Below the pieces are notes generated by a model. That model was not told the origin of the DNA and did no database searches. It saw nothing but the letters and a program-made list of their open reading frames with translations. This document shows, one piece after another, positions 250 to 15,650 of a stretch of 27,191 nt of DNA. This DNA is from Lysobacterales bacterium (lineage in GTDB: Bacteria > Pseudomonadota > Gammaproteobacteria > Xanthomonadales > SZUA-36): assembly GCA_031406105.1 (NCBI GenBank), contig JANOGQ010000603.1, positions 1-27,191 of the forward strand, in the 5' to 3' direction. The position numbers and the translations under genes were made by a program. Numbering within the stretch: position 1 is the stretch's first letter; every line of letters begins with the position of its first letter.

Positions 250-1608
250 ATGAATTTACTTGATACAATACGCCGCCCCGAGGGAAAGACGCTTGAATTC
301 AAGCGTGACTTGAGTTCGCCGATTGGCATTCTTCGCACTGTCGTGGCTTTCGCTAATACAGCTGGCGGAACCTTGCTTATCGGCGTTGCGGATGGTTCAG
401 GTAATGTTCGAGGGGTCGATGATCCAATGGCCCTTGAAGAGAAAGTCGCCAGCTTGATTAGCGATTCCATCACTCCGCGCCTGCTGCCAGACCTGGAATT
501 GTTGAGCTTCCGCGATACTCACGTCCTCGCAATTCAGGTTTATCCAAGCCCTTCACGCCCACATCATCTCACCAAGTCAGGCCCCCAGGCTGGAACATAT
601 GTTCGTGTTGGCTCCACGAATCGGCGAGCAGATGAAGCACTGATTGCTGAAATGCAGCGCTTTTCCAGAGGAGATGTATTCGACGAACACCCGATGCCTG
701 AACTCGACTCAGAAGCCATTGACTTCCGAGCAGCTTCCGAGTTCTTTGCCAGCGTACGGCGATTGAGAACAAGGGATCTGGAGTCACTGCACTTGCTGGT
801 TCACTTTCAAAACCGGCTGGTGCCAACAGTAGGGGGAGTATTGCTGTTCGGCACAAACCGCCTTGAGCAATTTCCTGATGCCTGGATCCAGGTGGGTAAA
901 TTTGGTGGGGTCGACAAATCAAAAATCGTAGATCAGGCTGAGCTTAAAGGGCCGTTGCTTCAGTCCATTGAAGACGCTATTGCGTTTGTTGAGAAGCATT
1001 CAATTCGGGGCGCAGACATAGGGCGTTTGCGTCGAGTGGATCGTTGGTCCCTGCCGCCGGTAGCAGTGCGTGAGGCGGTAATCAACGCTGTCGCTCACTG
1101 TGATTATGCACAAGCTGGGGCGCCCATACGGCTGGCACTTTTCGATGATAGGCTGGAAGTTGAAAACCCGGGATTGCTTCCTTTCGGGCTCACGATTGCT
1201 GATTTGTCGCTTGGTATTTCCAAATTGCGCAACCGTGTCATCTGCAGAGTGTTCCACGAACTCGGCCTGGTTGAGCAGTGGGGTAGTGGAATTCAACGAA
1301 TGATTTCAGCCTGTCGGGATGCTGGACTTGCGGCACCCGAAATGGAGGAAATTGGAAATCGCTTTCGCCTGACGTTGCGGATCAGGCAAGTAAAACCGAT
1401 TGAACTGGACGATATTGACAGCGCAATCGTTGATCTTCTGCAAAAGCCAGACGGGCTTCCTACTCGTGAGATAGCAGAATCCATCGGGCTCACAACACGC
1501 GCCACCCGTACACGCCTCGTTGGCTTGGTTGGGAAGGGTCTGGTGCGCGAAATCGGGACTGGGCCAAAAGACCCAAGACGCCGCTACTTTGCAACGATAG
1601 TGAGCTGA
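250..1608 (+). CDS. Schlafen/AlbA_2 domain + HATPase_c_4 (RecG C-terminal-like) + winged HTH protein
   Basis: N-term EGKTLEFKR...AFANTAGGTLLIGV (AlbA_2); REAVINAVAHCDY...ENPG...RN...LGLVEQWGSG (HATPase_c_4); C-terminal TREIAESIGLTTRATRTRL HTH; intact 452 aa. Confidence 0.9.
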   Translation: MNLLDTIRRPEGKTLEFKRDLSSPIGILRTVVAFANTAGGTLLIGVADGSGNVRGVDDPMALEEKVASLISDSITPRLLPDLELLSFRDTHVLAIQVYPSPSRPHHLTKSGPQAGTYVRVGSTNRRADEALIAEMQRFSRGDVFDEHPMPELDSEAIDFRAASEFFASVRRLRTRDLESLHLLVHFQNRLVPTVGGVLLFGTNRLEQFPDAWIQVGKFGGVDKSKIVDQAELKGPLLQSIEDAIAFVEKHSIRGADIGRLRRVDRWSLPPVAVREAVINAVAHCDYAQAGAPIRLALFDDRLEVENPGLLPFGLTIADLSLGISKLRNRVICRVFHELGLVEQWGSGIQRMISACRDAGLAAPEMEEIGNRFRLTLRIRQVKPIELDDIDSAIVDLLQKPDGLPTREIAESIGLTTRATRTRLVGLVGKGLVREIGTGPKDPRRRYFATIVS

Positions 1609-1651
1609 GTCAGCAGTACGTGCCAAACAAGATTTAATCCTAAGGTGGAAC

Positions 1652-2002
1652 ATGCGCACTTCCGGCAAAATCACACACTGGAACGCCGAAAAACGCTATG
1701 GCTTCATCACCTCGAACACGGGTGGCGACAATGGCCAAAAAGGCCCAACGCCAGCCAGGGAGCGAAACCCGGATCGACGCGGGCATTGACAACCCAGTGA
1801 TGTGGTACCGGATGCGCTCATACCGCTGGCGCGGCCTCTGCAGGCGCCAGAACCGGAATCTCAATGCGACGGACGCAAGTTCTGCAAGCAGATGACCCGC
1901 TGTGACGAGGCTTATTATTTTCTTCGGAACTGTCCCGGTATTGACATGGATGGCGACGGGGATGGGGTGCCTTGTGAATGGGAAATGTGCGGCCGGCGCT
2001 GA
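1652..2002 (+). pseudogene. Internally deleted cold-shock-domain + Excalibur Ca-binding protein (copy 1)
   Basis: ATG 1652 after AAGGTGG gives MRTSGKITHWNAEKRYGFITS (CSD start), with an in-frame TGA at 1787-1789. The same frame continues to CDGRKFCKQMTRCDEAYYFLRNCPGIDMDGDGDGVPCE (Excalibur DxDxDGxxCE). Confidence 0.85.
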
Positions 2003-2060
2003 GTTGTCCCGATCGTCCAATGTAGGAAACTTTCAAGTAATTCTTCTGAGGGGTCTTCCC

Positions 2061-2092
2061 GCTATTCCCGAATCTACTTCAATGTGCGTTCC
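2061..2092. repeat. R1 repeat copy 1 (truncated before the right hairpin arm)
   Basis: gctattcccgaatctacttcaatgtgcgttcc; part of a 305-bp block 1788-2092 colinear with 6237-6541. Confidence 0.9.
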
Positions 2093-2231
2093 TGATGTTG
2101 CAAGCACCAATTTCCTACAGGAATTACCAAAAATTCCTATAGTGCCAGGTCTTCCCTCGCATTTACTATTCAGCATTCCTGGGTTAGATGGCCCACGCCA
2201 CTTCAACTATCAGTTTGCGCTGGAGTAGATT

Positions 2232-2468
2232 ATGTTTGTGAACACTTTGTCAAAAATGCAGCAGGACCTGCGGTTTTTAACGGCTGCTGAAAGGGAACAG
2301 TTGGCCTTGACGGCTTGGAATAGCCTGGGTGACGGTTCTGATCCCGCGGTCAGTCAGCAGTTGGACCCTGGCGGAATCGAGCTTGCCCTGCAGCGCGATG
2401 GTGAATTGGAGTCGGGCGAAACCAGCGCAATCACCAGTGAGAAATTTCTACAGTGCACTCGTCGCTAA
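2232..2468 (+). CDS. Putative addiction module antitoxin (TIGR02574/Unstab_antitox-like)
   Basis: LTAAEREQLALTAWNSL...IELALQRDGELESGE pattern; lies directly upstream of a ParE-like fragment. Confidence 0.7.
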   Translation: MFVNTLSKMQQDLRFLTAAEREQLALTAWNSLGDGSDPAVSQQLDPGGIELALQRDGELESGETSAITSEKFLQCTRR

Positions 2469-2625
2469 ACCTCTGTTGTATGCGGAGGTAAGAGGGATTC
2501 GACGCGCACTACTGGTTCGCTTTCCTTTTTCGGTGCTCTATCGAGTACGCGAGCCCAACGTGATCAGGGTGTTGGCATTGCGCCACCACAAGCGGAAGAA
2601 TGTTTTAGCTGCCGGTCGCAAGTAG
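2461..2625 (+). pseudogene. C-terminal half of a RelE/ParE-family toxin; N-terminus missing
   Basis: PLLYAEVRGIRRALLVRFPFSVLYRVREPNVIRVLALRHHKRK matches the ParE C-terminal RRxLLxRFPY/xVxAxxHxxR pattern; no N-terminal half or start seen. Confidence 0.75.
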
Positions 2626-2626
2626 G

Positions 2627-2682
2627 TCGAATCGGGTGAATTTCGACTTCGGGTTGATAACGGTTAGGCACAAACTGGGAGC
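2627..2682. repeat. Dispersed repeat D, copy 1
   Basis: gtgaatttcgacttcgggttgataacggttaggcacaaactgggagc aligns without gaps to 7616-7671. Confidence 0.85.
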
Positions 2683-2790
2683 AGTTTCACAACGCCGATT
2701 TTAAACCCGTCGAATTCGACGGGTTTAAAAAGGCAGGCTGGTTTGAACAGCTTCACCCTCACGCCGAAACAGTGGATAGAGACAACCGCG
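2676..2790 (+). pseudogene. KilA-N domain protein internal fragment, frameshifted
   Basis: WEQFHNADFKPVEFDGFK, a +1 shift in the A-run 2727-2731, then QAGLNSFTLTPKQWIETT; typical KilA-N sequence. Confidence 0.8.
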
Positions 2791-2824
2791 TAAGCACGCA
2801 CCTGGAGCAGCAATGAGACCCTTG

Positions 2825-2862
2825 AATATACCCAATATGGGCATTAATATACCCAATATGGG
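2825..2862. promoter_or_regulatory. Tandem 17-bp direct repeat AATATACCCAATATGGG (21-bp period); likely autoregulatory operator
   Basis: Copies at 2825-2841 and 2846-2862, each with a near-palindromic CCCAATATGGG core overlapping the candidate ATGs at 2837 and 2858. Confidence 0.65.
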
Positions 2863-3484
2863 TAGAAAAGCTGTTGGCGATATTCGTAATCAACCGATCA
2901 CTATGGTCGATGCTCTGTTTTCCAGGACACAGCAACGTGTGCTGGCATTGCTATTTGGTCAACCTGAACGAAGTTTCTATGCCACCGAAATCATTATGCT
3001 TTCTGAAGGTGGTTCAGGTGCAATTCAACGCGAGCTATCCAAGCTGTCGAGCAGTGGCTTGATCAACGAAACCCGCATTGGCTCTCAACGGCACTTCCAG
3101 GCGAATGCTGATGCACCGCTTTTTTCCGAGCTGTGTGCGATTGTGCAAAAGACCATTGGATTGGCAGAGCCGCTCAAGACGGCCTTGAAGCCGCTGGTTG
3201 ACCAGATCGAGCTAGCGTTTGTTTTCGGTTCCGTTGCCAAGAAATCGGATTCTGCGACCAGCGATATCGATTTGATGGTGATCAGCGACACATTGGTTTA
3301 TGCGGATGTATTTCTGGCGCTGGAAGAAATGGCTTATAAACTGGGACGGGCCATTCAGCCGACGATCTATTCAAAAGAGGAACTGGCACACCGCCTTGAG
3401 TCCGATAATGCGTTTGTAAGGCGGGTTTTGAAGCAGCCGAAGATCTGGATTATTGGGCAAGAAAGTGACCTCCAAACTGCATAA
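2858..3484 (+). CDS. HTH + minimal nucleotidyltransferase (MNT) antitoxin
   Basis: N-terminal wHTH (SGAIQRELSKLSSSGLI); NTase motif FGSVAKKSDSATSDIDL. Start uncertain (2837 or 2858). Confidence 0.85.
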   Translation: MGRKAVGDIRNQPITMVDALFSRTQQRVLALLFGQPERSFYATEIIMLSEGGSGAIQRELSKLSSSGLINETRIGSQRHFQANADAPLFSELCAIVQKTIGLAEPLKTALKPLVDQIELAFVFGSVAKKSDSATSDIDLMVISDTLVYADVFLALEEMAYKLGRAIQPTIYSKEELAHRLESDNAFVRRVLKQPKIWIIGQESDLQTA

Positions 3485-3884
3485 TCTCACTGGCCCGGGA
3501 AAGTCGCTTGTGGCAGAACCCCCCGATCGGGCTGAATTTGTTGGTTTGGTAAAGTCGGCAACCGCGCGCCTTCGTGACGCCGCCAATACTTCCCTTGCCC
3601 TGGAGAGCCGGTTTGACCTGGCCTACAACTCTGCCCATGCTTTTAGCCTGGCCGCTTTGCGCGCGCAGGGGTTCCGTGCGCATAACCGCTATATCGTCTT
3701 CCAGGTATTACCCGAAACCCTGGGTTTGGGGCCAGAAGTGTGGCGCATATTGGCCAAAGCACATGATCTTAGAAATGTGAGTGAATACGAAGGCGATCTG
3801 AATGTGGATGAACGGTTAGTAACCGATCTGGTAACAGCTACCCAGGCAGTGGCGACAGCCGTTGAGAAATTGACCTTACCCTGA
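3465..3884 (+). CDS. HEPN-like partner (putative toxin) of MNT
   Basis: Overlaps MNT stop by 20 nt with GTG 3465; RFDLAYNSAH...AHDLRNVSEYEG (Rx4Y HEPN-like motif). Confidence 0.75.
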   Translation: MTSKLHNLTGPGKSLVAEPPDRAEFVGLVKSATARLRDAANTSLALESRFDLAYNSAHAFSLAALRAQGFRAHNRYIVFQVLPETLGLGPEVWRILAKAHDLRNVSEYEGDLNVDERLVTDLVTATQAVATAVEKLTLP

Positions 3885-3888
3885 CACA

Positions 3889-3904
3889 CGCTCAGCTGAA
3901 ACGT
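3889..3904. repeat. R2 palindrome copy 1 (degenerate)
   Basis: cgctcagctgaaacgt, starting 5 nt after the HEPN stop. Confidence 0.65.
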
Positions 3905-4040
3905 GAATGCTCTTTTTCTATTCCGCTGCTTTTCTTGATCCAGCGCTCGTTCCAACTGGCAATCCTGCCTTTGCAACGGTCAACAGCCTCTGTGGAAAAC
4001 TGCCCAGGGCACCGTCGCCACCACTGATTGTTCGGCGCGA

Positions 4041-4757
4041 TCAGACAGCTTCGCGGCTCTCAACTGCTCGTCGAACTGTATCCAGATTGATGCTGGAATC
4101 GTAACCGGAACCCAGCTTTGAGAATTCGAAGGTCAAAGACAGTCCTTTGGATTTCCCGAAAGCAGCAATACCGGAATTGAGCGTAGAACTGAAGTCGGTT
4201 AAATCAAACGCTGCGTAGTAGCTTGTCGGCGCAAGCACACAAAGCGTGATATTGGTTGCTTGCAGTACCGGTTGAGTTTCGAGCTTGTATCCAAGTTGCT
4301 CCCGGTGGGTTTTGGACCAGGTAAACAACAAGCCGTACCTCAGAATTTCAATGGCAGCAAAAAGCGGATTGTCGCTGCCGACTTTCAGTTCGATCAATGA
4401 ATAATGAGTTGGGCTTTGTCGATACACCAGGTCAACAGAAGCCCTTTTATCTTTAGCAGCGCTTACCACGCCGGACGCTGTGGGCATCTGATTCGACCAA
4501 CTTTCCCCACAACTGAGCACGATGGCACGTTCAAGCTGAAGCTCGGGGCTTGTGTTGTTTGTTGACAGATCCAGGTGGCGTTTCCATCTCCAGTTTTCCC
4601 TCGAAGGGTTTGAGTAGGCGCTTGCACCTCGGCCCGACCAGTTGTTGGAGATTTGTTGATAGGCCTTGTCGAGAAACTCATGCGTTCCTGTGATGGGGGT
4701 GCTTCTGCGTGTCAGTTCATTCGCGGCCGAGCGATGTTTGGCAATCGCTGGCGGAGC
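4041..4757 (-). pseudogene. 5'-truncated PD-(D/E)xK-like nuclease protein
   Basis: Frame stays open upstream of the listed GTG (4520) to a TAG at 4760-4758 with no ATG/GTG/TTG start: KHRSAANEL...NPSRENWRWK...PELQLERAI...NQMPTASG...VDLVY...LIELK..SDNPLFAAIEILRYG. Confidence 0.6.
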
Positions 4758-4789
4758 CTATCGAACCAGGTCGCAGTCACACATCCGCG

Positions 4790-5045
4790 GTCCGGTTACG
4801 TCGTGGAAAGCCAGGAGGCGGCTTTGTGGGCGTTCACTCGTACGAACAATTTTGCGGATGCGATTCTGCTGGCCGCGAATCTTGGTGAGGACGCCGACAC
4901 GACGGCCGCGGTGTGTGGCCAGGTTGCCGGGGCCTGGTACGGCGAGTCGGGCATCCCGCCCCATTGGCTGGAATGTCTGGCGCTTCGCCCGGACATTGCC
5001 ACCCTGGCCGATCGGCTCGGCATGAGTTCCGAAAAGCGCGCTTGA
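4790..5045 (+). pseudogene. C-terminal fragment of ADP-ribosylglycohydrolase (DraG/ARH family)
   Basis: [15 protein letters not shown]...[28 protein letters not shown]; only ~85 aa of a ~300-aa family. Start coordinate approximate. Confidence 0.85.
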
Positions 5046-5072
5046 TGGATGGCGACAAATGGGCCTGGCAAT

Positions 5073-5212
5073 AAAGGGGCCTAAAAAAGGGGCCTAAAAA
5101 AGGGGCCGGGCACTTTTTCGAATGCGTCAAACTAAATGTATCCGGCCCCTTAAACCAGAAACAGCTCCATTATCCGACAGCAGTCAGCGGTAATTTCCTG
5201 CCCCGGCCCCTT
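5073..5212. repeat. Tandem AAAAAAGGGGCCT (~2.7 copies) plus inverted AAGGGGCCGG/CCGGCCCCTT motifs
   Basis: 13-mer tandem 5073-5107; AAGGGGCCGG 5100-5109 pairs with CCGGCCCCTT 5142-5151; a third CCGGCCCCTT at 5203-5212. Confidence 0.8.
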
Positions 5213-5343
5213 CGGTAATAGGCCAAACTGCTTGTTGTCAGGTTTATCTGGTTCCATCAGGAGTTGAGAAAGCGCTTATCGCCGGCAGCGGGCAACCCGA
5301 ACCGGGTTTGGAACAGCGCATGTTAACCTGACCTTTGAACCAC

Positions 5344-5364
5344 TTGTTCCCATATCGGGAACAA
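5344..5364. promoter_or_regulatory. Palindromic operator upstream of higBA
   Basis: TTGTTCCC-ATATC-GGGAACAA with perfect 8-bp arms, followed by TATCAT (-10-like). Confidence 0.75.
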
Positions 5365-5396
5365 ACTATCATATGAATTATTGCGTGGAGTAAGGG

Positions 5397-5696
5397 GTGA
5401 GAATCATTGCTCTCAAGACCATCCGGGATTTCTGGCAGAAAGCTGCGCATAGAGACAGTGAACAAGCACTTAAATCGTGGTATGCAATTGCACGCAAAGC
5501 CGGCTGGGCAAGTCCGCAAGACGTCAAGGTGCAGTTTGGTCATGCCAGCATCATTGGAGGTGGGCGAGTCGTGTTTAACATAGCAGGCAACAAGTATCGC
5601 CTGGTGGTGAAATTCAACTATGCCTATCGTCTGGGCTACGTCCGGTTTATTGGTACGCACTCCGAATACGATGCAATTGATATGGAGACGATCTAA
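5397..5696 (+). CDS. higB: HigB mRNA interferase toxin (E. coli YgjN type)
   Basis: MRIIALKTIRDFW...WASPQDVK..F..AS...VFNIAGNKYRLVV...FIGTHSEYD. Confidence 0.93.
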   Translation: MRIIALKTIRDFWQKAAHRDSEQALKSWYAIARKAGWASPQDVKVQFGHASIIGGGRVVFNIAGNKYRLVVKFNYAYRLGYVRFIGTHSEYDAIDMETI

Positions 5697-6061
5697 TGAA
5701 AATCAGGCCGATCCGAACCAAAACCGACTATGCTGCCGCCATGAAGCGCATCGATCAGGTTTTCGACGCCAGGCCAGGCACTCCCCAGGGCGATGAACTC
5801 GAGGTGCTAACGCTGTTGGTTGAAAACTATGAACGGCAGCACTATCCGGTCGAGGCGCCTGACCCGGTGGAATTTATAAAGAATGTCATGGAGTTCATGG
5901 GGCTGGGCCAGAACGAACTGGCGGTGGTACTGAATTCACGTTCCCGGGCCTCGGAAATACTCAGCCGCAGGCGCCCGCTGACCTTGTGGCAGATCCGCAA
6001 AATTTCAGCCGCCTGGGGGTTGCCGGCTGATTCTCTTATTTCTGAATATGAAGTTGCCTAA
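5696..6061 (+). CDS. higA: HigA HTH antitoxin
   Basis: IRPIRTKTDYAAAMKRID...DELEVLTLLVENYE...SRSRASEILSRRRPLT; stop/start overlap with higB. Confidence 0.92.
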   Translation: MKIRPIRTKTDYAAAMKRIDQVFDARPGTPQGDELEVLTLLVENYERQHYPVEAPDPVEFIKNVMEFMGLGQNELAVVLNSRSRASEILSRRRPLTLWQIRKISAAWGLPADSLISEYEVA

Positions 6062-6196
6062 AGTATTGGGGTCAGAGTAAAGGGACAAAGTGAAATTGAG
6101 CAGCGGCGCTCAGTTTCGGAGTTGGTTCACCCATTCCCTGAATATTTCAGTCCTTAGTACAAGCCCTCACCTAAATGTCCAGAATCTCGTTGATCA

Positions 6197-6451
6197 GTGG
6201 GTATCGCCATCGAAGCCCATAGCTACCACAAACTACGACAACCCGGTGATGTGGTACCGGATGCGTTCATACCGCTTGCGCGGCCTCTCCAGGCGCCAGA
6301 ACCGGAATTTCAATGCGACGGGCGCAAGTTCTGCGAGCAGATGACCAGCTGTGACGAGGCTTACTACTTTCTTCGCAACTGTCCCGGCAATGACATGGAT
6401 GGTGACGGGGATGGGGTGCCTTGTGAATGGGAAGTGTGTGGCGGGCGATAA
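6197..6451 (+). pseudogene. 3' part of CSD-Excalibur gene (copy 2)
   Basis: GIAIEAHSYHKLRQP (possibly the end of a membrane-proximal segment) then CDGRKFCEQMTSCDEAYYFLRNCPGNDMDGDGDGVPCE; no CSD. Confidence 0.75.
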
Positions 6452-6509
6452 GTTGTCCAGATTGGCCAATGTAGGCAACTTTCAAGTAATTCTTCTGAGG
6501 GGTCTTCCC

Positions 6510-6551
6510 GCTATTCCCGAATCTACTTTAATGTGCGTTCCCGCGGAGCGC
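6510..6551. repeat. R1 repeat copy 2
   Basis: gctattcccgaatctactttaatgtgcgttcccgcggagcgc; right arm degenerate. Confidence 0.9.
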
Positions 6552-6758
6552 GGTTGAGCGCTTGGGTTCCGGGCCCTAAACTGAATACCAAGTTGTCTTT
6601 TCAGTTTCTCCGGCTCGGTGATTTCTTACACGTTTAATAGCAAAGCTGCCAACGACTTCGTATCCAAAAGCTCGCACACTATCGTCAATGCCTTGAATGG
6701 CTTTCAGTGAAGAATCCAGGCCGGGCTGTGTGAAGTTTTCATCAATCGGAAAAACACA

Positions 6759-6779
6759 GTTTAACGCTACGCGTTAAAC
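6759..6779. promoter_or_regulatory. Palindromic operator upstream of second higBA
   Basis: GTTTAACGC-TAC-GCGTTAAAC with perfect 9-bp arms, 24 nt before the GTG start. Confidence 0.75.
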
Positions 6780-6802
6780 GTGATACATTATGGCAGAACG
6801 CG

Positions 6803-7081
6803 GTGATCAAGAGTTTTGCAGATAAAGCAACGGCGCAACTCTTCGGTGGGATTTGCCCGCGCCGGTGGCAATCGGTGCGAAAGTCGGCGGAAAGAAAACT
6901 GGCACTACTGGATGCAGCAACTTCGTTGGAGTTTTTGTACGCACCTCCTGGTAATCGATTGGAACTGTTGCAAGGCGACAGGAAAGGGCAACACAGAACT
7001 CGCATCAATGATCAATGGCGTGTGTGTTTTACGTGGAAGCAGGGCAACGCTTTTGATGTATCCATTGTTGACTACCATTGA
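6803..7081 (+). CDS. higB: HigB plasmid-maintenance-system killer toxin
   Basis: MIKSFADKAT..LF...PPGNRLELLQGDRKGQHRTRINDQWRVCFTW...VSIVDYH. Confidence 0.93.
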   Translation: MIKSFADKATAQLFGGICPRRWQSVRKSAERKLALLDAATSLEFLYAPPGNRLELLQGDRKGQHRTRINDQWRVCFTWKQGNAFDVSIVDYH

Positions 7082-7091
7082 GAACAAACTG

Positions 7092-7391
7092 ATGCCAAAG
7101 AACAAAATGCGTCCCATACACCCCGGTGAAATACTCCGGGAAGAGTATCTGCAACCACTAAACCTGACGCCCAATGCACTGGCCATCGCGCTGCGCGTTC
7201 CGGCGCCCCGGATAAACGATATTGTCCTGGAACGGCGAGCCATTACACCCAATACGGCACTGCGACTGGCGCGTTACTTTGGTGGTGACGCGGGAAGCTG
7301 GATGAATCTGCAGGTAACTTATGATTTGAAGCAGGCCGAGCTTGCGGAAGGTAAAGAGATTCGTACCGAAGTAAATCCCAGAGCGGCGTGA
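7092..7391 (+). CDS. higA: HigA addiction module antidote
   Basis: MRPIHPGEILREEYL...RINDIVLERRAITPNTALRLARYFG...WMNLQ..YDL; start set at ATG 7092. Confidence 0.95.
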   Translation: MPKNKMRPIHPGEILREEYLQPLNLTPNALAIALRVPAPRINDIVLERRAITPNTALRLARYFGGDAGSWMNLQVTYDLKQAELAEGKEIRTEVNPRAA

Positions 7392-7548
7392 TCGTTTGGC
7401 CTTGAATCATGGCCAAACCTCACACCAAAGCGTAAACCATCTCCATCGCCAACCCCTCCTCATTCCTTGTCGGCGATTCTGGCAGAGTTGCGATCCTGGG
7501 AACAAAGCTGGCAGTGACCGCGCCTACCATCGCGTCCAGGGTCTTCAA

Positions 7549-7589
7549 GCTATTCTCGAATCTAATTTAATGTGCGTTCCCACCGGAAC
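7549..7589. repeat. R1 repeat copy 3
   Basis: gctattctcgaatctaatttaatgtgcgttcc-cacc-ggaac. Confidence 0.88.
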
Positions 7590-7615
7590 TCCCATGTCAG
7601 AGCGTTTTTCCTATA

Positions 7616-7671
7616 TCGGATCAAGTGGATTTCGACTGCGGGTTGATAACGGCCTGGCACAAACTGGGAGC
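7616..7671. repeat. Dispersed repeat D, copy 2
   Basis: Colinear with 2627-2682. Confidence 0.85.
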
Positions 7672-7692
7672 GCAATCCAACAAGCCCATTCC

Positions 7693-7720
7693 TTGACAAA
7701 GCACTCCAGTGGAGTATCGT
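7693..7720 (+). promoter_or_regulatory. Sigma70-like promoter with operator palindrome
   Basis: TTGACA (7693-7698)-16 nt-TATCGT; ACTCCA-G-TGGAGT (7703-7715) lies between the boxes. Confidence 0.65.
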
Positions 7721-8058
7721 TGATTTCCGTAGCCGAAACCCAGCCTTTTCAACGGAAAGCTGCACAACTGCTCTCCGAGATCGAAAAATCTGAGCTCATC
7801 ACTCATCTTTCGGCGAACCCCAGTGCTGGAGCCCGCATCAAGGGCACAGGTGGAATCAGGAAGCTGAGGTGGTCATATGGCGGTCGAGGGAAAAGTGGTG
7901 GCGTCAGGGTTGTTTACTATTTCCATGACCTGGATATGCCGCTTTTCTTGCTGACTCTATTTGGTAAAAATGAAAAGTCTAACCTGTCGATGGAGGAGAA
8001 AAACACTCTGTCGAAGCTGGTAAGAGAACTTGTGAAGTGTTGGAGCGGGATGCAATGA
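7720..8058 (+). CDS. RelE/HigB-2-family toxin
   Basis: TTG 7720 after GGAG; NPSAGARIKGTGGIRKLRWS..GRGKSGGVRVVYY...LLTLFGKNEKSNL. Confidence 0.9.
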   Translation: MISVAETQPFQRKAAQLLSEIEKSELITHLSANPSAGARIKGTGGIRKLRWSYGGRGKSGGVRVVYYFHDLDMPLFLLTLFGKNEKSNLSMEEKNTLSKLVRELVKCWSGMQ

Positions 8059-8342
8059 GCAAGGCATTTGAAGAAATCAGCGCCGGTCTGGATGATGCCA
8101 TCGCGCACGCCAAAGGCAGGAAGAGCGCAGTTATTGTCCACGAGCCTGAAACTATTGACGTAAAGGCAATCCGCAAAAAAACCGGCATGAGCCAACAGAA
8201 GTTTTGTACGACGTTTGGAATTTCATTGGGCACTTTGCGTCATTGGGAACAGGGGCTGCGTTCGCCACGGGGCCCGGCGAGAGTGCTGCTGAAGGTAGTG
8301 GATCATATTCCGGGTGCCGTTATCCAGGCGATTGGCAAATAG
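8055..8342 (+). CDS. HigA-2-like XRE HTH antitoxin
   Basis: ATGA overlap with toxin; FEEISAGLDDAI...DVKAIRKKTGMSQQKF...TLRHWEQGLRSPRGPARVLL. Confidence 0.92.
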   Translation: MSKAFEEISAGLDDAIAHAKGRKSAVIVHEPETIDVKAIRKKTGMSQQKFCTTFGISLGTLRHWEQGLRSPRGPARVLLKVVDHIPGAVIQAIGK

Positions 8343-8369
8343 CGGATATCACGACATCTGGCGGTGCAT

Positions 8370-8437
8370 TAGCTGGACCTCTGATCACTTTTCCGGGTTC
8401 CTGCACTGTGGCAAAGCGCGCTTCAGCTGAAACGCGC
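8370..8437. repeat. R2 copy 2 with upstream segment E
   Basis: tagctgg..ctctgatcacttttccgggttcctgcactgtggcaaagcgcgcttcagctgaaacgcgc; aligns to 12593-12658. Confidence 0.88.
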
Positions 8438-8571
8438 ATGGTCAAATCCGAATATATAAAGGCAACGAACAGTTTAATTTCCTACAACAGGCACGGTGAA
8501 TTCCTACATCCCCCCTGCAAAGCGTTGGTTAGGCTTCGTGACACACAAGCCAATCCTTCTATGTATCTATT

Positions 8572-8922
8572 ATGGTACACTCCAGCACACCTCACGACCC
8601 AAAACCGGTCCGTTTCTATCGGCAGGACAATGGTGATGAGCCCGTGCGGGAGTGGCTGAAAAGTTTATCGAAGGAGAACAGGGCAAAGATCGGCAGGGAC
8701 ATCATGACATTGCAAGAAGGTTGGCCTATCGGTATGCCGCTGGCGCGAAAGTTAACCGACCGACTTTGGGAAGTACGCTCAAGGCTGAATCGCGAATCGG
8801 CCAGGACCATTTTCACGGTCAAGGACGAAACCATTATTTTGTTGCACGGATTCATCAAGAAGTCGCGCAAAACACCACGGCAGGATTTAATCATCGCGCG
8901 GGAAAGATTGGCGAAATTGTAA
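8572..8922 (+). CDS. RelE/ParE-superfamily Gp49-like (Tad-like) toxin
   Basis: FY...G.EPVREWLKSL...GWPIGMPL.RKL...LWEVRS...LLHGFIKKSRKTP. Confidence 0.9.
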   Translation: MVHSSTPHDPKPVRFYRQDNGDEPVREWLKSLSKENRAKIGRDIMTLQEGWPIGMPLARKLTDRLWEVRSRLNRESARTIFTVKDETIILLHGFIKKSRKTPRQDLIIARERLAKL

Positions 8923-8947
8923 ATTGGGAGATCAGGAAGAACCGATC

Positions 8948-9232
8948 ATGGGAAAGCAGAATATTGGCAGCCGCTTCGATGAGTTTCTCGACGAGGAAGG
9001 TTTACTACAGGATGCCCAGGCGGTGGCGGCCAAGCGCCTTATCGCCCACCAGCTGGCCAAACTGATGGAAGAGCAGTCCCTGACCAAGATGGAACTGGCA
9101 AGGCGCATGCACACCAGCCGGGCGGCGCTTGACCGTTTGCTTGATCCCGAAAATCCCTCGGTAACCTTACAAACCTTGCAAAGCGCGGCAACGGCTGTTG
9201 GTGGGCGGCTACTCATTACGCTGGAGGTTTGA
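8948..9232 (+). CDS. XRE-family HTH antitoxin (Ata-like)
   Basis: IGSRFDEFLDEEG...KMELARRMHTSRAALDRLLDPENPSVTLQTL. Confidence 0.9.
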   Translation: MGKQNIGSRFDEFLDEEGLLQDAQAVAAKRLIAHQLAKLMEEQSLTKMELARRMHTSRAALDRLLDPENPSVTLQTLQSAATAVGGRLLITLEV

Positions 9233-9280
9233 AAATCCCCGCAGCATGGTCTTCTAATCACGACCAAAAGCGCCAGTGAA

Positions 9281-9306
9281 TGGCAAAAAGCGTTTCAGCT
9301 GTAACG
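9281..9306. repeat. R2 copy 3
   Basis: tggcaaaaagcgtttcagctgtaacg; first 21 nt identical to 13351-13371. Confidence 0.88.
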
Positions 9307-9368
9307 TAATTAGTTGCGCAGTTGGCAAACAAAGCAACATCCGCGAAATTCCTCCGAAGGGTCTTCCC

Positions 9369-9530
9369 GCTATCCTCGAATCTACTTTAATGTGCGTTCC
9401 CGCGGGAACGCGGGTGAGCCGTCACGACACCTGGCGCGCTTGAGCACAAACAACACTCTGGCCTGAGGCGCTGCATTTGCCGGAGATTTCCTACGTAAGA
9501 ACAGCGATTCTCCCATTCAGCCGCGCCTTC
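9369..9530. repeat. R1 copy 4 plus segment C
   Basis: R1 with perfect 18-bp palindrome GCGTTCCCGCGGGAACGC (9394-9411); whole block colinear with 11392-11553. Confidence 0.92.
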
Positions 9531-9592
9531 TGATTCCCCCAGAATTGCCATGTTGACACTTGCTATGTACACAGAACGTGCATACACTCAAA

Positions 9593-9874
9593 ATGAAAAC
9601 CGAATGGGATCCAGCAAAAGCAGCTTCAAATCTGCGAAAGCATGGCATCGACTTTTCTGATGCCGCTGTCGCATTGGAAGACAGAAACGCACTGACGATT
9701 GATGATTCAGGGCATGCAGAGCAGCGGTTCAAGACTCTGGCTCTTGGTCCACAGCTCGCAGTGTTGATGATCGTGCACATCGCGCCGAACGAAGACACCG
9801 TCCGGATTGTTTTAGCGCGACGAGCAGACCGGAAAGAAACCAGCTATTACTTCGATGGAATAAGCCATGAGTGA
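9593..9874 (+). CDS. brnT: BrnT toxin (DUF497)
   Basis: EWDPAKAASNLRKHGIDFSDA...EQRF...VRIVLARRADRKE; start set at ATG 9593; TTGCTA-17-TACACT upstream. Confidence 0.92.
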   Translation: MKTEWDPAKAASNLRKHGIDFSDAAVALEDRNALTIDDSGHAEQRFKTLALGPQLAVLMIVHIAPNEDTVRIVLARRADRKETSYYFDGISHE

Positions 9875-10124
9875 AGACTTCAGTAAAGGAAAACGCGGCA
9901 CCGTTGTTCCCCCCGACCCGAACAAGTTGCGGATCACCATCCGCCTGGATGGCGACATCATCGCGTATTTCAAGCGCAAGGTGCATGAAGCGGGTGGCGG
10001 CAATTACCAGACGCTGATGAATCAGGCCCTGCGCGAATTAATTGATTCGGACTCGAAGCCATTGGAAGAGCGCTTGCGCAAGGTCATCCGCGAAGAGTTG
10101 CGCCAGGTTTCTGAAGCCCGCTAA
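9867..10124 (+). CDS. brnA: BrnA antitoxin (RHH)
   Basis: KLRITIRLDGDIIAYFK...GGNYQTLMNQALRE; overlaps brnT stop. Confidence 0.92.
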   Translation: MSEDFSKGKRGTVVPPDPNKLRITIRLDGDIIAYFKRKVHEAGGGNYQTLMNQALRELIDSDSKPLEERLRKVIREELRQVSEAR

Positions 10125-10126
10125 GA

Positions 10127-10462
10127 TCAGGAAACAGCGCTTCCAAGAAAGTCACCGACGTCGTCAAGTACACTGCCTTGACCGAGCACTTCCACACCGA
10201 CAATCTGCCTGTCAGTAAGGGGTGTTTTCAGAATTACCAGTTAATTCGAAATTTCCTGGCAGCCATTCAACACGGAAAGTCCCATATTCTGTTATGTGAA
10301 GAAAGGCAGGCCGACCTGGTGCGCAGCTACCTGGTAACGGTTTCGTGCATGCGTGATTCTGCACATCGAAAGCGCTGCCGGGTGATTTTTTGGCAGAATA
10401 TCCAGCGAGTATGTGGAGCGGACCTGGTGCTGTTTCTCGAATCCAAGTATGGAATTCGATAG
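10127..10462 (+). pseudogene. C-terminal fragment of a putative restriction-endonuclease-like (PD-(D/E)xK) protein
   Basis: YQLIRNFLAA...HILLCEERQADL...RCRVIFWQ...FLESKYGI resembles C-termini of such proteins as I recall them; no catalytic N-terminal part or RBS seen. Confidence 0.45.
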
Positions 10463-10503
10463 AACCTGGACGGAAAAATAGGGTAACCGGCCAGAAACCA
10501 TCC

Positions 10504-10545
10504 CTATCCTCGAATCTACCTTAATGTGCGTTTCTGCGGAAACGC
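10504..10545. repeat. R1 copy 5
   Basis: ctatcctcgaatctaccttaatgtGCGTTTC-tgcg-GAAACGC; compensatory C-G to T-A change in the stem. Confidence 0.9.
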
Positions 10546-10747
10546 CCAGTTGCGATGGAAATTGCCAAGGTGAATCTCTGATTATTGGAACCCCGCTTTC
10601 CCCGGCGAACTTCTCACCGAATTGAATACCACTGGGGGGCGGTCTCTTTTCCTACGGAACCAGAGGCGTTCTGCCCAGTCAAGCCACGCCCTTTGGCAGG
10701 TAGGCTTGCGAAGGATGATCACCAAAACCTCCAGCATTGAATCCCTA

Positions 10748-10762
10748 TACCCCAATGGGGTA
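10748..10762. promoter_or_regulatory. Palindromic operator
   Basis: TACCCCA-A-TGGGGTA between TTGAAT and TAGTAT, 8 nt before the GTG start. Confidence 0.7.
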
Positions 10763-10770
10763 GTATTGGC

Positions 10771-11094
10771 GTGATATTCATCGAGACGTCTGTTTTTACC
10801 CGCCAGATCAAGAACCTGATTTCTGATGAAACTTACCTGGAGTTACAGGAATGGATCGCGGAGTCTCCAGGCCGGGGGAAGGTAATCCCGGGAAGTGCTG
10901 GTTGTAGGAAACTCCGCTGGAAGATAGCTGGTAAGGGAAAACGGGGTGGCATTCGGGTGATCTACTATTGGCTCAAGGAAAGCAATCAGATTTTTGTGCT
11001 GATCGCTTACGCCAAGGCAGACACGGATGATTTAACCCAGCAGCAGATCAGGCTGTTGCGGGATCTGGTCAAGAACGAGTTCCGGAGTCGGTGA
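10771..11094 (+). CDS. RelE/HigB-2-family toxin
   Basis: MIFIETSVFTRQI...PGRGKVIPGSAGCRKLRW...GKRGGIRVIYYW...YAKADTDDLT. Confidence 0.92.
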   Translation: MIFIETSVFTRQIKNLISDETYLELQEWIAESPGRGKVIPGSAGCRKLRWKIAGKGKRGGIRVIYYWLKESNQIFVLIAYAKADTDDLTQQQIRLLRDLVKNEFRSR

Positions 11095-11095
11095 A

Positions 11096-11389
11096 ATGAA
11101 AGAACAACTCTTTGATGACCTGCTGACTTCAGTCAAGGAGGCAGGTCAGATTCTTCGCGGCAGGTTGCCGCCGACCAGGGTCTTTACGATGAAAGCCCTG
11201 GATGTTCGGCGGCTTCGACACAACCTCAAACTGAGCCAGGGTGAGTTTGCTGCACTGGTGCATGTGAGTGTAAAAACCCTGAGAAACTGGGAGCAAGGTG
11301 CACGCGCGCCAGGTGGCGCTGCTGCTGCACTCCTGACCGCGATCCGGAATGATCCGAAGAATGTAATCTCTGCGCTCAATTCAAGTTAA
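11096..11389 (+). CDS. HigA-2/NadS-like HTH antitoxin
   Basis: LFDDLLTSVKEA...DVRRLRHNLKLSQGEFAAL..VSVKTLRNWEQG.R.P.GAA.ALL.AI.NDP. Confidence 0.92.
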   Translation: MKEQLFDDLLTSVKEAGQILRGRLPPTRVFTMKALDVRRLRHNLKLSQGEFAALVHVSVKTLRNWEQGARAPGGAAAALLTAIRNDPKNVISALNSS

Positions 11390-11391
11390 TC

Positions 11392-11553
11392 GCTATCCTC
11401 GAATCTACTTTAATGTACGTTCCTGCGGGAACTCGGGTTAGCCGACACAACACCGGGCGCGCTTGAGCACAAACAACACTCCAGCCTAAGTCGGGGCATT
11501 TGCCGGAGATTTCCTACGTAAGAACAGCGAATCTCCCATTCCGCGCGCCCTCT
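11392..11553. repeat. R1 copy 6 plus segment C
   Basis: Begins 2 nt after the antitoxin stop; gttcc-tgcg-ggaac at 11419-11432; colinear with 9369-9530. Confidence 0.92.
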
Positions 11554-11563
11554 AATCCTCCGA

Positions 11564-11618
11564 CCATTGGCGGAGAAGATTCGCACGGTAATCCGCGAGG
11601 AATTGCGCCAGGTTTCTG
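11564..11618 (+). pseudogene. Remnant 3' end of a second brnA
   Basis: PLAEKIRTVIREELRQVS vs PLEERLRKVIREELRQVS (10059-10113); 55-nt ungapped alignment. Confidence 0.8.
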
Positions 11619-11677
11619 GACAGCGCACAGGTCAGGCAGCAACTCGGGCTGACCCGAAAAAGCAAGAGAGGGCGCTT

Positions 11678-12190
11678 GTGAAGAATGACGGCCGTTACGA
11701 TATTTCGAAATTGGCGCAAGTCCAATACGAACCAGGTTCAGGCGAGCAGGTGCTCAGGAGTCGGCTTGGTATCAAATCGCCACAGGAAATGGATGACAAC
11801 GAAACCCGCGCCCTGAAAAGGGTGATGGTAGGGCTGGTGAGCAAATAGGATGCGACATATCGCTTCACCTCGGCCGATATCTGCGAGATTCACAGGATTT
11901 GGCTCGGTGAGATTTATGAGTGGGCGGGTGAGTTCCGACAGGTGAATGTGAGTAAGGGTGAGTTTCTTTTTGCAGCCGCTGCTCGTATTCCTGGCCTTGT
12001 GGCGAAATTTGAAAGCGAAGTACTGGCCCGATATACGCCGTGAAATCTGAGAGACCGTGCAGCGGTTGCCCGTGCGCTGGCAGTGGCACATGAGGAGTTG
12101 GTTCTTATCCATCCGTTTCTGGATGGCAACGGTCGGGTAGCTCGTGTAATTTCGATACTTATGGCTTTACAGGCGGGTCTGCCCGCCTTT
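11678..12190 (+). pseudogene. Fic/DOC family protein with two nonsense codons and truncated C-terminus
   Basis: GTG 11678 after GAGAGGG; single frame YEPGSGEQVLRSRLGI...K*(11846)DATYRF...IYEWAGEFRQVNVSK...TP*(12041)...HPFLDGNGRVAR. Confidence 0.9.
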
Positions 12191-12313
12191 CCTAAAAGTA
12201 ATATCGCTATCCCGCAACTTTACCCGCAATTTTGCGGGATTTCGTCTGGTGTGCGATCGCGGTAGATGTATTGTATCGGCCTTCAAAGCATCCGGAACCT
12301 TAAATACCCATGG

Positions 12314-12576
12314 GAAGCCCAACGCAAGCCAGGGAGCGAATCCCGGATCGACGCGGGCATTGACAACCCGCTGATGGGGTAACGGATGCGATCATGCCGC
12401 TTGCGCGGCCTCTCCAGGCGCCAGAACCCGAATTTCAATGCCACGGATGTAAGTTCTGCAAGCAGATGACCAGCTGTGACGAGGCTTGTTACTTTCTTCG
12501 GAACTGCCCCGGCAAAGACATGGATGGTGACCGGGATGGGGTGCCTTGTGAATGGGAAGTGTGTGGCGGGCGCTGA
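12314..12576 (+). pseudogene. Linker + Excalibur remnant of CSD-Excalibur gene (copy 3)
   Basis: Colinear with 1743-2002, with the same GGGCATT|GACAACCC junction; CPGKDMDGDRDGVPCE. Confidence 0.8.
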
Positions 12577-12592
12577 GTTGTGACCATGGGGG

Positions 12593-12658
12593 TAGCTGGG
12601 CTTCTGATCACTTTTCCGGATTCCTGAACTTTGGCAATGGGCGTTACAGCTGAAACGC
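12593..12658. repeat. R2 copy 4 with segment E
   Basis: ...tggcaatgggcgttacagctgaaacgc; aligns to 8370-8437. Confidence 0.88.
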
Positions 12659-12724
12659 TCCAGGTAGCTTTTTACTGACAAAAGTTTGGGCTTTTCCCAT
12701 AGCCGCCTGAACTGACAGATGAGA

Positions 12725-12744
12725 TTGTATCCACATGGGTACAA
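12725..12744. promoter_or_regulatory. Imperfect palindromic operator
   Basis: TTGTATCCA-CA-TGGGTACAA, 7 nt before ATG 12752. Confidence 0.6.
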
Positions 12745-12751
12745 AGTTATC

Positions 12752-13051
12752 ATGATCACAGTTCTTGAGACCGAGGTTTTCGAGACCTGGCTCAGACGGC
12801 TCAAGGATTCGCGCGGTAAGGCCAGGATTATTCATCGCATTCGTGCGCTCGAACGGGGCCATTTTGGTGATTCCCGATCTGTTGGCCCCGGAGTTGTGGA
12901 ATTGAGAATTCACGTTGGGCCTGGTTATCGCGTGTATCTCAAGCGCGAACGGGAGTCGATCTGCACTTTGTTGTGTGGTGGTGGCAAAAGCAGCCAGCAA
13001 AAAGACATCCAGCGTGCAATTGAATTGGCAAAACATCTGGAGCTCTACTGA
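12752..13051 (+). CDS. RelE/ParE-family addiction module killer (TIGR02683-like)
   Basis: FETWLRRLKD...RI..L..GHFGDSRSVG.GV.ELRIHVGPGYRVY...LLCGGGKSSQQKDI. Confidence 0.93.
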   Translation: MITVLETEVFETWLRRLKDSRGKARIIHRIRALERGHFGDSRSVGPGVVELRIHVGPGYRVYLKRERESICTLLCGGGKSSQQKDIQRAIELAKHLELY

Positions 13052-13054
13052 ATC

Positions 13055-13372
13055 ATGTCCAAAACGAAATCGATTTCCGCAAAGCCTTTTGAGGCCAGCG
13101 ATTACCTGGACAACGACGAAGTCATCGCGGAATATCTGGCAGCGGCGCTGGAGGACGATGATCCGGATGCTTTCCTGGTCGCGGTGCGCGATGTGGCGAA
13201 AGCGCGGGGTATGGGCGATGTGGCTGCGAAATCCGGCCTGGGCCGGGAGAGTTTGTACAAGGCGCTGCGGCCCGGCGCACTACCGCGCTTCGTAACGGTT
13301 CGCAGCGTGTTGGCAGCGCTCGGCATTCGGCTCGAGCTGGTTCCGTTTGATGGCAAAAAGCGTTTCAGCTGA
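13055..13372 (+). CDS. Addiction module antidote (TIGR02684/HI1420-like HTH)
   Basis: FEASDYLDNDEVIAEYL...VAKARGM..VA.KSGLGRESLYKAL...PRF.TV..VL.ALG; last codons and stop lie inside R2. Confidence 0.93.
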   Translation: MSKTKSISAKPFEASDYLDNDEVIAEYLAAALEDDDPDAFLVAVRDVAKARGMGDVAAKSGLGRESLYKALRPGALPRFVTVRSVLAALGIRLELVPFDGKKRFS

Positions 13373-13378
13373 AACATT
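13351..13378. repeat. R2 copy 5 (perfect GTTTCAGCTGAAAC at 13362-13375)
   Basis: tggcaaaaagcgtttcagctgaaacatt. Confidence 0.9.
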
Positions 13379-13385
13379 CTTTTAG

Positions 13386-13532
13386 GGAAGCTCTGATTAA
13401 TTCGTCCCTGAAGCATCAGAGCACGCAAAACAAAAAATGTCATTTTTTTTGCTTCATTTTCAATGATTTACAATCATCGAAAATGGCGGCACATCCTTGT
13501 ACCGCGGCAACTCTGAATAAATCAGAGTTGCC
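13386..13532. mobile_element. Putative IS5-family MITE (~147 bp, non-autonomous)
   Basis: Terminal IRs GGAAGCTCTGATTAATTC / (rc) GGCAACTCTGATTTATTC match 15/18; flanks TTAG and CTAA (YTAR); internal hairpins; no ORF. Confidence 0.55.
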
Positions 13533-13569
13533 CTAATTATTTGTAGGAGTTTAGCCCGATATTTGAAGA

Positions 13570-13587
13570 AATGTTTCAGCTGAAACG
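13570..13587. repeat. R2 copy 6 (perfect core at 13573-13586)
   Basis: AATGTTTCAGCTGAAACG is the exact reverse complement of 13361-13378. Confidence 0.88.
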
Positions 13588-15438: not shown

Positions 15439-15508
15439 GACACTGGCTCCTTGGGGTAAGTTTGTTCAGAGGCGCTACTTTAGGTTTCACCCCATGAATT
15501 AGCCGTGA

Positions 15509-15541
15509 ATAATTTGTGTATAACTATACAATTATTGTACT
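15509..15541 (-). promoter_or_regulatory. Putative CarH/LitR operator (11-bp direct repeats) upstream of fasciclin
   Basis: Minus strand AGTACAATAAT-TGTATAGTTAT-ACACAAATTAT; nearly identical to 16868-16900. Confidence 0.7.
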
Positions 15542-15585
15542 TTCGTGCGATTTCGGCTCTGAATTCGATAAAAATCAAGTCCCCC

Positions 15586-15616: not shown

Positions 15617-15650
15617 TCGTTCAAAGTTACAAGCAGGTCAGTTCAGCGTC

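Follow-up and report, generated by a model that had tools for sequence, protein, structure and literature searches.

The 27,191-nucleotide stretch of DNA analysed here, hereafter the window, carries between positions 1650 and 13590 a run of nine two-gene toxin–antitoxin (TA) modules interspersed with copies of two short perfect palindromes, R1 and R2. The window is the whole of a 27.2-kb contig (C243) of a metagenome-assembled genome (MAG) of an uncultured gammaproteobacterium; this MAG is fragmented (654 contigs, 3.6 Mb), 90% complete with 4% estimated contamination, and its relatives have been deposited under Lysobacterales, Haliea or Halieaceae MAGs. Comparison with related genomes indicated that the palindromes are probably recombination joints that were used repeatedly in this lineage. 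The array is not an integron array. The wider model, in which a palindrome-centred polar site joins modules by a non-integron route and the enzyme is probably of the Xer type, has in our judgement about an even chance of being correct. Contigs of the window's own genome are given below as C numbers, related genomes as G numbers and the loci compared as L numbers; the related genomes share descent and are therefore not independent.

According to this model, the region would be the distal part of a chromosomal accretion array of small self-contained modules, mostly type II TA operons, joined end to end via a lineage-specific polar recombination site. The invariant core of the site would be a 14–16 bp perfect palindrome (GTTYCNGCNGRAAC), with a conserved block belonging to the upstream module on its left, either of ~25–36 nt (R1) or in the form of an A-rich TGGCAAAAAG box (R2). 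On its right, complete copies would carry a dif-like XerD arm after 3 nt, and, beyond this arm, a second TTCC...GGAA box. With exchange taking place in or at the palindrome, each flank would travel with its own module, and recombination between directly repeated sites may lead to excision or insertion of modules. A Xer-type tyrosine recombinase, namely host XerCD, would be the most probable enzyme, and its substrate would be derived from dif. The locus itself would be an old, largely frozen array, also eroded by deletions, in which the TA modules may have survived because they are addictive.

Palindromic junctions and module exchange

The window contained 12 copies of two 16-bp perfect palindromes in the same frame, with the cores CGTTCCCGCGGGAACG (R1) and CGTTTCAGCTGAAACG (R2). 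Six copies belonged to R1 (2050, 6499, 7538, 9358, 10492, and 11381) and six to R2 (3892, a half site, 8408, 9280, 12631, 13350, and 13561). R1 was preceded by a conserved block of 25–36 nt, with identical polarity in all six window copies, and R2 by a short, A-rich box (TGGCAA). Also recurrent, 14–100 nt to the right of palindromes, was a second palindromic box (ATTTCCTAC...GGAA), which was present in the arrays of C232, L094, C388, and G017 as well. An exact 16-mer is expected 0.002 times per 3.6 Mb, and each core was found 12–13 times in the own genome, on many contigs. All 12 window sites lay outside the intact TA open reading frames (ORFs), which make up 49% of the region, except for the last codons of one gene (chance probability ~3e-4). 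A first-pass annotation of the sequence had placed the modules close to R1 or R2, and this was borne out, with seven of nine modules starting 70–265 nt downstream of a palindrome, four ending within 60 nt of one, and one stop codon falling inside R2.

The sites were found in a restricted group of genomes. Among 40 relatives, R2 was confined to the same genus (five of six genomes), and R1 was present in 11 of the 24 genomes of the same family; the 16 genomes from outside the family had neither. Twelve genomes, the own one included, had a third variant, R3 (centre CCGCGG, TTTC arms); 11 of these belong to this family and one to another family of the order. Reversed-sequence controls gave zero matches. 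R1-type sites with a rearranged left block were located 70–150 nt downstream of tRNA-Phe and tRNA-Lys in G009 (L008 4946 and L010 4921), one of these elements adjoining a ParS/RES-like TA pair, and single palindrome copies were also found inside unrelated genes. Searching a plasmid collection returned distant matches to TA genes only and no match to the sites. R1 and R2 are not restricted to this locus, being family-wide and occurring also within DUF222-HNH genes, beside XerD-arm motifs, and at the centre of a few attC sites, features outside the sequence available to the first-pass annotation.

Segments of the window array were found again, in a different order and in part in a different orientation, in G005:C8, G004:C454, G006:C326, G002:C105, G001:C118, and C232 of the own genome. 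Twenty-four array-type loci were compared all against all, and the resulting 339 homology end points, which are approximate as BLAST end points, were evaluated against 1000 randomisations. End points within 3 nt of a palindrome numbered 15 vs. 2.9 expected (approximately five-fold; maximum in the randomisations, 10), and those within 30 nt numbered 33 vs. 10 expected.

An arm-by-arm comparison showed homology beginning 1–3 nt from the palindrome and on one side only, the shared side being either the left or the right. A restriction endonuclease (REase) fragment with its R1 was common to the window (10528) and C232, and the right sides differed. Likewise, the end of the antidote gene with its R2 was common to the window (13360), L095, and L096, followed by three different right sides, and a DUF4143 ATPase module had its left edge at R2 in both L095 and L096 next to different left neighbours. 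One module end abutted R2 in G004 (L094) and R1 in G006 (L095), indicating that the variants are interchangeable; hybrid palindromes composed of halves of two variants exist as well, including one in the window (10530). These junctions may reflect site-specific exchange, or else recombination through short homology.

The complete site and candidate enzymes

Complete sites were found on C523 of the own genome and in G009:C7, both ~45 nt upstream of a CSD-Excalibur gene. Both had the layout of R1 left block, palindrome, 3 nt, and TTATGTTAAA(A/T). The own dif site (C13:7362) was ATTCGTATAA-TGTATA-TTATGTTAAAA, and the arm at C523 matched its XerD arm at 11 of 11 positions. At R2 or R3 junctions the palindrome was followed by GTGA and TTATGTT(A/C)AAT in G002, G004, G006, G001, and G015, and three such sites were present in an array of the window type in G017:C4. 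The arms in G009:C7, G017:C4, G002, G004, and G006 were near-exact and likewise 3 nt from the palindrome. The sites composed of R2 and the arm were direct repeats in L095 and L096. Dispersed copies of the XerD-arm motif ATTATGTTAAAA in G007 (L162–L172) were also considered as junction sites and were rejected, as they proved to be 11 identical copies of one insertion sequence end, unrelated to the palindromes.

Within the window, the R1 copies kept the left block and the palindrome, not the arm, and the R2 copies showed at most degenerate arm traces. Left-only and right-only sites are the pattern expected of hybrid sites after exchange at the palindrome, and decay fits them equally well. The lack of the XerD arm at most window sites, together with the many truncated neighbours, makes the locus look old, largely frozen, and eroding.

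Two Xer-like tyrosine recombinases were encoded in the own genome (C178 and C288), in which the canonical dif site is on C13, and no serine recombinase was found in it at 90% completeness. In G009, which has the sites, IntI was absent and the tyrosine recombinases numbered just two, presumably XerC and XerD. Of the candidate enzymes, one of the Xer type has the best sequence support, given that the XerD arm is exact and at a fixed spacing and that G009 encodes no further tyrosine recombinase. That XerCD or a Xer-like enzyme acts at the sites is, overall, a tentative proposal. The first-pass annotation had suggested looking for a recombinase or a RAYT-type gene elsewhere, and the genome contained an integron integrase on C174, the two Xer-like genes, and one Y1 gene on C507 that is unrelated to the sites.

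Several observations weigh against a palindrome-centred site served by a Xer enzyme. On the XerC side of the composite site only 4–6 of 11 dif positions matched, and the palindrome occupies the place where XerC would be expected to bind. None of the twelve window sites kept a good XerD arm, degenerate traces being visible at 3899 and 8420. The sites were directly repeated and not alternating, unlike those of Acinetobacter dif modules. A pure Xer model does not explain the palindromes inside DUF222-HNH genes, nor those in three attC centres, where three of the 16 genuine attC sites in the G017 integron had the R3 palindrome in their enlarged variable centre. The 16–37 nt of shared sequence might recombine without a dedicated enzyme. 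More than 90% of the homology end points lay away from palindromes, many at ORF ends or internal deletions, indicating that decay was also extensive. Finally, no clean palindrome-to-palindrome excision and no circle, such as the first-pass annotation had proposed to look for, were present in Logan contigs of four freshwater-sediment runs from a single study (X1–X3 among them), which is weak evidence since contigs drop rare forms. The joints seen in these contigs were paralogous, from 9412 to 1663 (R1 palindrome to CSD gene start, three runs) and from 9414 to 9475 (as in C232), along with a few deletions.

The earlier proposal that modules are captured or shuffled at R1/R2, and that breakpoints in relatives would fall there, was therefore upheld only in part: shuffling among relatives, partner switching, and the enrichment within 3 nt agree with it, and the great majority of breakpoints do not. 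Erosion by deletions, offered in the same annotation as the alternative, also operates at this locus. It could be asked whether erosion is sufficient, with the locus being an insertion or defence-island hotspot and the palindromes passive repeats (ParB/KorB-like operators, hairpins, or elements like repetitive extragenic palindromes, REP) that took part in occasional short-homology exchange. The off-palindrome breakpoints, the many truncated genes, and the solitary palindromes downstream of tRNA genes and inside unrelated genes would suit such a scenario, and the second TTCC...GGAA box accompanying the sites would suit operators. The R2 arms (GTTTC...GAAAC) are those of parS, although the centre of the palindrome is AGCT or CGCG and that of parS is ACGT; two copies of GTTTCACGTGGAAC on C518 (1041 and 1644), likely the true chromosomal parS, differed from R1/R2 mainly in these central bases. 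Passive repeats do not account for the concentration of breakpoints at the edge of the palindrome, five-fold above expectation, or for exact partner switching on both sides, and RecA-dependent exchange usually requires more than 16 bp. Additionally, the polarity of the left block relative to the modules was conserved, the XerD arm occurred at fixed spacing in at least three genera, and the palindromes numbered only 12–13 copies, had no GTAG head, and did not flank the single Y1 transposase gene. We consider a purely passive origin unlikely.

A different enzyme was suggested by the genes in which many of the palindromes reside. A multicopy gene with DUF222 and HNH nuclease domains was present in 17 of 24 family genomes, with as many as 13 copies (full or partial) in a genome, and palindromes were detected only in genomes having this gene. 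Most of 20 such genes from 13 genomes carried one palindrome variant at two to four fixed places, of which the upstream two were ~215–230 nt apart and the third lay ~370 nt farther. Perfect palindromes of 14–20 bp at three conserved positions were found, for instance, in L012 (5920–7341), L013 (6055–7167), L125, L135, and the own C425/C617, and the gene in L127 repeated an asymmetric variant at all its places. Translation of the first two places gives V-S-A-E-T or V-P-A-G-T, and that of the third, which uses a different frame, gives R-F/S-R-G-N. Between R1 and R2 there are two symmetric pairs of changes; these change the protein sequence and preserve the palindrome. The use of two frames and the symmetric, paired changes indicate a constraint on the DNA. 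Truncated copies of the gene started or stopped at the palindrome places, which thus behave as breakpoints. Moreover, the variant at array junctions matched that of the resident genes, namely R1/R2 in the own genus and R3 in G017.

The palindromes could accordingly be read as targets of the DUF222-HNH nuclease, each nuclease variant having its own palindrome, with breaks and repair by copying or joining reshuffling modules and parts of the nuclease gene. No other protein family tracks the palindrome variants, and the DNA constraint at three fixed places, the ends of the truncated copies, and the match between array and resident variants would follow from such a relationship. The co-occurrence is partly trivial, however, as many palindromes lie inside the gene. 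No DUF222-HNH gene was found on the window contig or beside the arrays inspected, a tblastn search with the HNH protein detected no remnant in the window, and no biochemical precedent was found in the literature. A nuclease alone also leaves the polar left block and the XerD arm unexplained, and the [IV]SAET before RRLACD may be an old protein motif, so that one of the sites may be coding by descent. This explanation, the main rival to a Xer-type enzyme, appears improbable to us. Similarly doubtful is a combined reading, in which nuclease and palindrome would co-evolve as enzyme and site, the palindrome being written three times in the nuclease gene and grafted onto a dif-like half site at the junctions, and in which TA/defence modules and nuclease segments would be excised, inserted, and shuffled without an integron.

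Full-text literature searches for the R2 sequence and for DUF222 with HNH returned nothing relevant, and we did not find these palindromes or the DUF222-HNH feature described. The triple co-varying palindromes in the DUF222-HNH genes could provide a first testable idea of what this widespread, selfish, and uncharacterised gene family recognises; its relatives include the mycobacterial REP13E12 repeats.

Search for attC sites

TA-rich stacks are normally explained by integrons. A covariance model of attC was trained within the lineage, on 15 sites of G017 and one of the own genome, with a hand-set R/L-box structure. At E ≤ 10 with filters off it gave no match in the window, C232, C388, L094–L096, or L141. 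The positive controls, all of them sites outside the training set, were recovered: two on the own C94 (E=0.002) and eight in the integron of the same-genus G005. A strict structural regex scan for attC in the window was also negative. Compared with attC, R1 and R2 are too short and perfectly symmetric, without extrahelical bases and without R''/R' boxes. The first-pass description of two repeat families lacking attC was thereby confirmed.

The own genome does contain an integron, on C174 (L001 1276–2445 and upstream), with a complete integrase (472 bits vs. a cut-off of 265) and attI. Its two cassettes, encoding a membrane protein and an ABM-like monooxygenase, had canonical attC, and more attC sites were present on C94. 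In G017 a sedentary chromosomal integron with ~16 attC sites was observed (L149, G017:C1:447300–467200), its cassettes including BrnTA and ParDE-like pairs.

With an integrase and two canonical cassettes in the same genome, the window array might be a degenerate integron array (cluster of attC sites lacking an integron integrase, CALIN) whose attC sites had decayed to apical hairpins and were serviced in trans by the C174 IntI. TA cassettes are typical of chromosomal integrons, the R3 palindrome lies within genuine G017 attC sites, and GTTAAAT, the XerD-arm motif, also conforms to the R' consensus of attC (GTTRRRY). Nonetheless, no GTTRRRY was present to the right of the window sites, and partners switched at the palindrome, not at an R' box. 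G009 has the sites without an IntI, and neither the perfect palindromes without extrahelical bases nor the negative results of the regex scan and of a covariance model with working controls agree with decayed attC. A CALIN is thus very improbable.

Contents of the array and relation to known systems

The nine modules were all on the + strand, co-oriented, and bicistronic, and comprised at least six toxin families (Table 1), as assigned with Pfam and NCBIfam. This confirms the first-pass annotation, which had counted eight operons from at least six families. Seven modules had a clear toxin family match (HigB_toxin, HigB-like, RelE twice, Gp49, BrnT/BrnA, and upstrm_HI1419/dnstrm_HI1420); the other two consisted of an MNT nucleotidyltransferase with a putative HEPN partner and of a weakly ParE-like module. 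The adjacency of small genes from known toxin and antitoxin families points to putative type II TA systems, with two partners assigned by position only.

Several modules were shared with relatives. Module 1 was also present in the G005 and G004 arrays, beside other modules there, and module 2 was 91% identical to G006:C326, where R2 likewise stands at its end. Module 4 occurred in four relatives with common ends at ~6620 and ~7400, and module 7 was common to G004, G002, and G001, with a right end near 10125 in common. The homologue of module 8 in L095 was, as in the window, followed by R1.

Table 1. Features of the window, in order of position.
Feature	Position	Strand	Basis or remark
CSD-Excalibur gene copy, tail cut by contig end	1..177	+	95% identical to own C232 1529-1704; D5 repeat at 130-177
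SLFN/AlbA_2 + HATPase_c_4 + wHTH gene, intact	250..1608	+	Pfam; between two CSD-Excalibur remnants
CSD-Excalibur broken copy (D5 + D1)	1649..2094	+	Ends in R1 left block + palindrome left half (2050-2094)
Second palindromic box (ATTTCCTAC...GGAA), D11	2109..2139	+	
TA module 1: small antitoxin-like ORF + ParE-like toxin (weak)	2232..2625	+	Pfam ParE_toxin E=0.003
TA module 2: MNT nucleotidyltransferase + putative HEPN partner	2813..3884	+	Pfam Polbeta/NTP_transf_2; MntA
R2 half site, right arm only	3892..3906		Homology with L095 stops here
Unknown ORF	4041-4520	-	
ADP-ribosylglycohydrolase C-terminal fragment	4653..5045	+	Pfam profile positions 217-287 of 287
TA module 3: HigB toxin + downstream partner	5397..6061	+	Pfam HigB_toxin 1.8e-30
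Excalibur remnant (D1 copy)	6197..6553	+	Ends in R1 left block + partial palindrome (6499-6553)
TA module 4: HigB-like toxin + helix-turn-helix (HTH) antitoxin	6803..7391	+	Pfam
R1 copy: left block + degenerate palindrome	7538..7589	+	
TA module 5: RelE toxin + NadS/MqsA-like HTH	~7700..8342	+	Pfam, NCBIfam; start codon uncertain
R2 copy with TGGCAA left box	8408..8434		
TA module 6: Gp49 toxin + HTH antitoxin	8572..9232	+	Pfam
R2 copy	9280..9306		After 21 nt identical to 3' end of the 13055-13372 gene
R1 + conserved right segment D3 with second box	9358..9531	+	Exact palindrome 9395-9410
TA module 7: BrnT/BrnA	9560..10124	+	Pfam
REase-ARP C-terminal fragment	10178..10462	+	Pfam; 88% identity to own C232 as far as palindrome
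R1 copy, hybrid palindrome (halves of two variants)	10492..10544	+	Homology with C232 ends at 10545
TA module 8: RelE + HTH	10771..11389	+	Pfam
R1 + second D3 copy	11381..11544	+	
BrnA tail	11564-11641	+	Repeat D7
Fic fragment	12083-12265	+	Pfam Fic
CSD-Excalibur remnant (D5 + D1)	12314..12661	+	Ends in R2 copy (12631-12657)
TA module 9: upstrm_HI1419 toxin + dnstrm_HI1420 antidote	12719..13372	+	Pfam, NCBIfam; stop codon inside R2
R2 copy	13350..13376		
MITE-like repeat (MITE, miniature transposable element with inverted repeats), 155 nt	13382..13538		Not related to R1/R2; between inverted copies of R2 + 6 nt (13361-13381, 13566-13586)
Last R2 copy, array right end	13561..13587		
AI-2E family transporter, core-genome flank	13670..14689	-	Pfam

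The intervening coding sequence consisted mostly of fragments, as had been stated earlier, the exceptions being the SLFN/AlbA_2 gene and the ORF on the minus strand. Four broken copies of the CSD-Excalibur gene were present in the window, and an intact homologue with both CSD and Excalibur domains was found in a same-genus genome (L093 5827–6459). The MITE-like repeat had 106 BLAST hits in the own genome and many in same-genus genomes, with a depth of 225–650 in runs X1–X3. A sister array on the own C232 (L101 3327–9519) adjoined a defence-like cluster comprising a reverse transcriptase, a DUF499 ATPase, and a large unnamed protein.

On its left side the array runs off the contig end. In the Logan contigs it appeared as pieces that broke at the 300-nt CSD-Excalibur repeats and at the MITE, with several palindromes bridged; the module order across the three 300-nt repeats is not bridged by these independent contigs. 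On the right, orthologues of the AI-2E transporter in 76 genomes had no array alongside, and an empty-site comparison at this gene was of no use, as its downstream neighbourhood was not conserved among these relatives. ARAGORN detected no tRNA or tmRNA in the window, indicating that this is not a tRNA-anchored island here, and Rfam at a permissive threshold gave nothing relevant across the whole window. Farther to the right (14941–17912), fasciclin and DUF4397 genes (Pfam) adjoined a MerR-type regulator, which the first-pass annotation had regarded as a possible B12-photoreceptor regulon.

The array thus resembles the stacks that integrons normally account for and has a different junction. Should this junction function as a recombination site, module mobility of the Xer type would no longer be limited to Acinetobacter plasmids and would include chromosomes of environmental gammaproteobacteria, or else the junction would point to a cassette system linked to a nuclease.

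Among known systems, the array works most like Acinetobacter Xer-dif modules and integron arrays and departs from both in their defining features, having no attC, no canonical XerC arm, and no alternating orientation. With sedentary chromosomal integron arrays and CALINs it shares the dense, co-oriented, TA-rich small modules, an integron elsewhere in the own genome, and a repeated site at each junction, which in most cases is attached to the upstream module's 3' end. Unlike in those arrays, the sites had no R''/L''/L'/R' boxes or extrahelical bases and were negative with the covariance model; the modules contained two genes, presumably with their own promoters, and exchange mapped to the palindrome. 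The Xer-dependent dif modules of Acinetobacter plasmids and chromosomes, and the elements termed IMEX, are small modules, often TA pairs of the higBA, brnTA, or relBE types, that are bounded by dif-like sites and shuffled between replicons (PMC13141974, PMC6449649, PMC12907356). The complete sites described here similarly carry the exact XerD arm of the host dif at dif-like spacing. They differ in that a 16-bp perfect palindrome takes the place of the XerC half or contains it, and in being polar and directly repeated, whereas Xer-dif sites alternate as C/D and D/C. Furthermore, the present array is chromosomal and belongs to an uncultured gammaproteobacterial lineage, most of its window sites lack the XerD arm, and its palindrome is tied to the DUF222-HNH family.

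Like REP elements and bacterial interspersed mosaic elements (BIME) with their REP-associated tyrosine transposases (RAYT; together, REPtrons), the palindromes are short, dispersed, intergenic, and linked to one multicopy gene family of the nuclease type. Unlike REP/RAYT, they number about a dozen, have no GTAG/GTGG head, and lie inside the gene instead of flanking it, and the gene encodes an HNH rather than a Y1 HUH enzyme; the sole Y1_Tnp gene of the own genome, on C507, had no such palindromes around it. Lastly, the sites resemble parS/ParB and KorB operators in being 16-bp perfect palindromes with GTTTC...GAAAC arms and several copies per replicon. In contrast to parS, their four central bases are AGCT or CGCG and not ACGT, and they mark recombination breakpoints.

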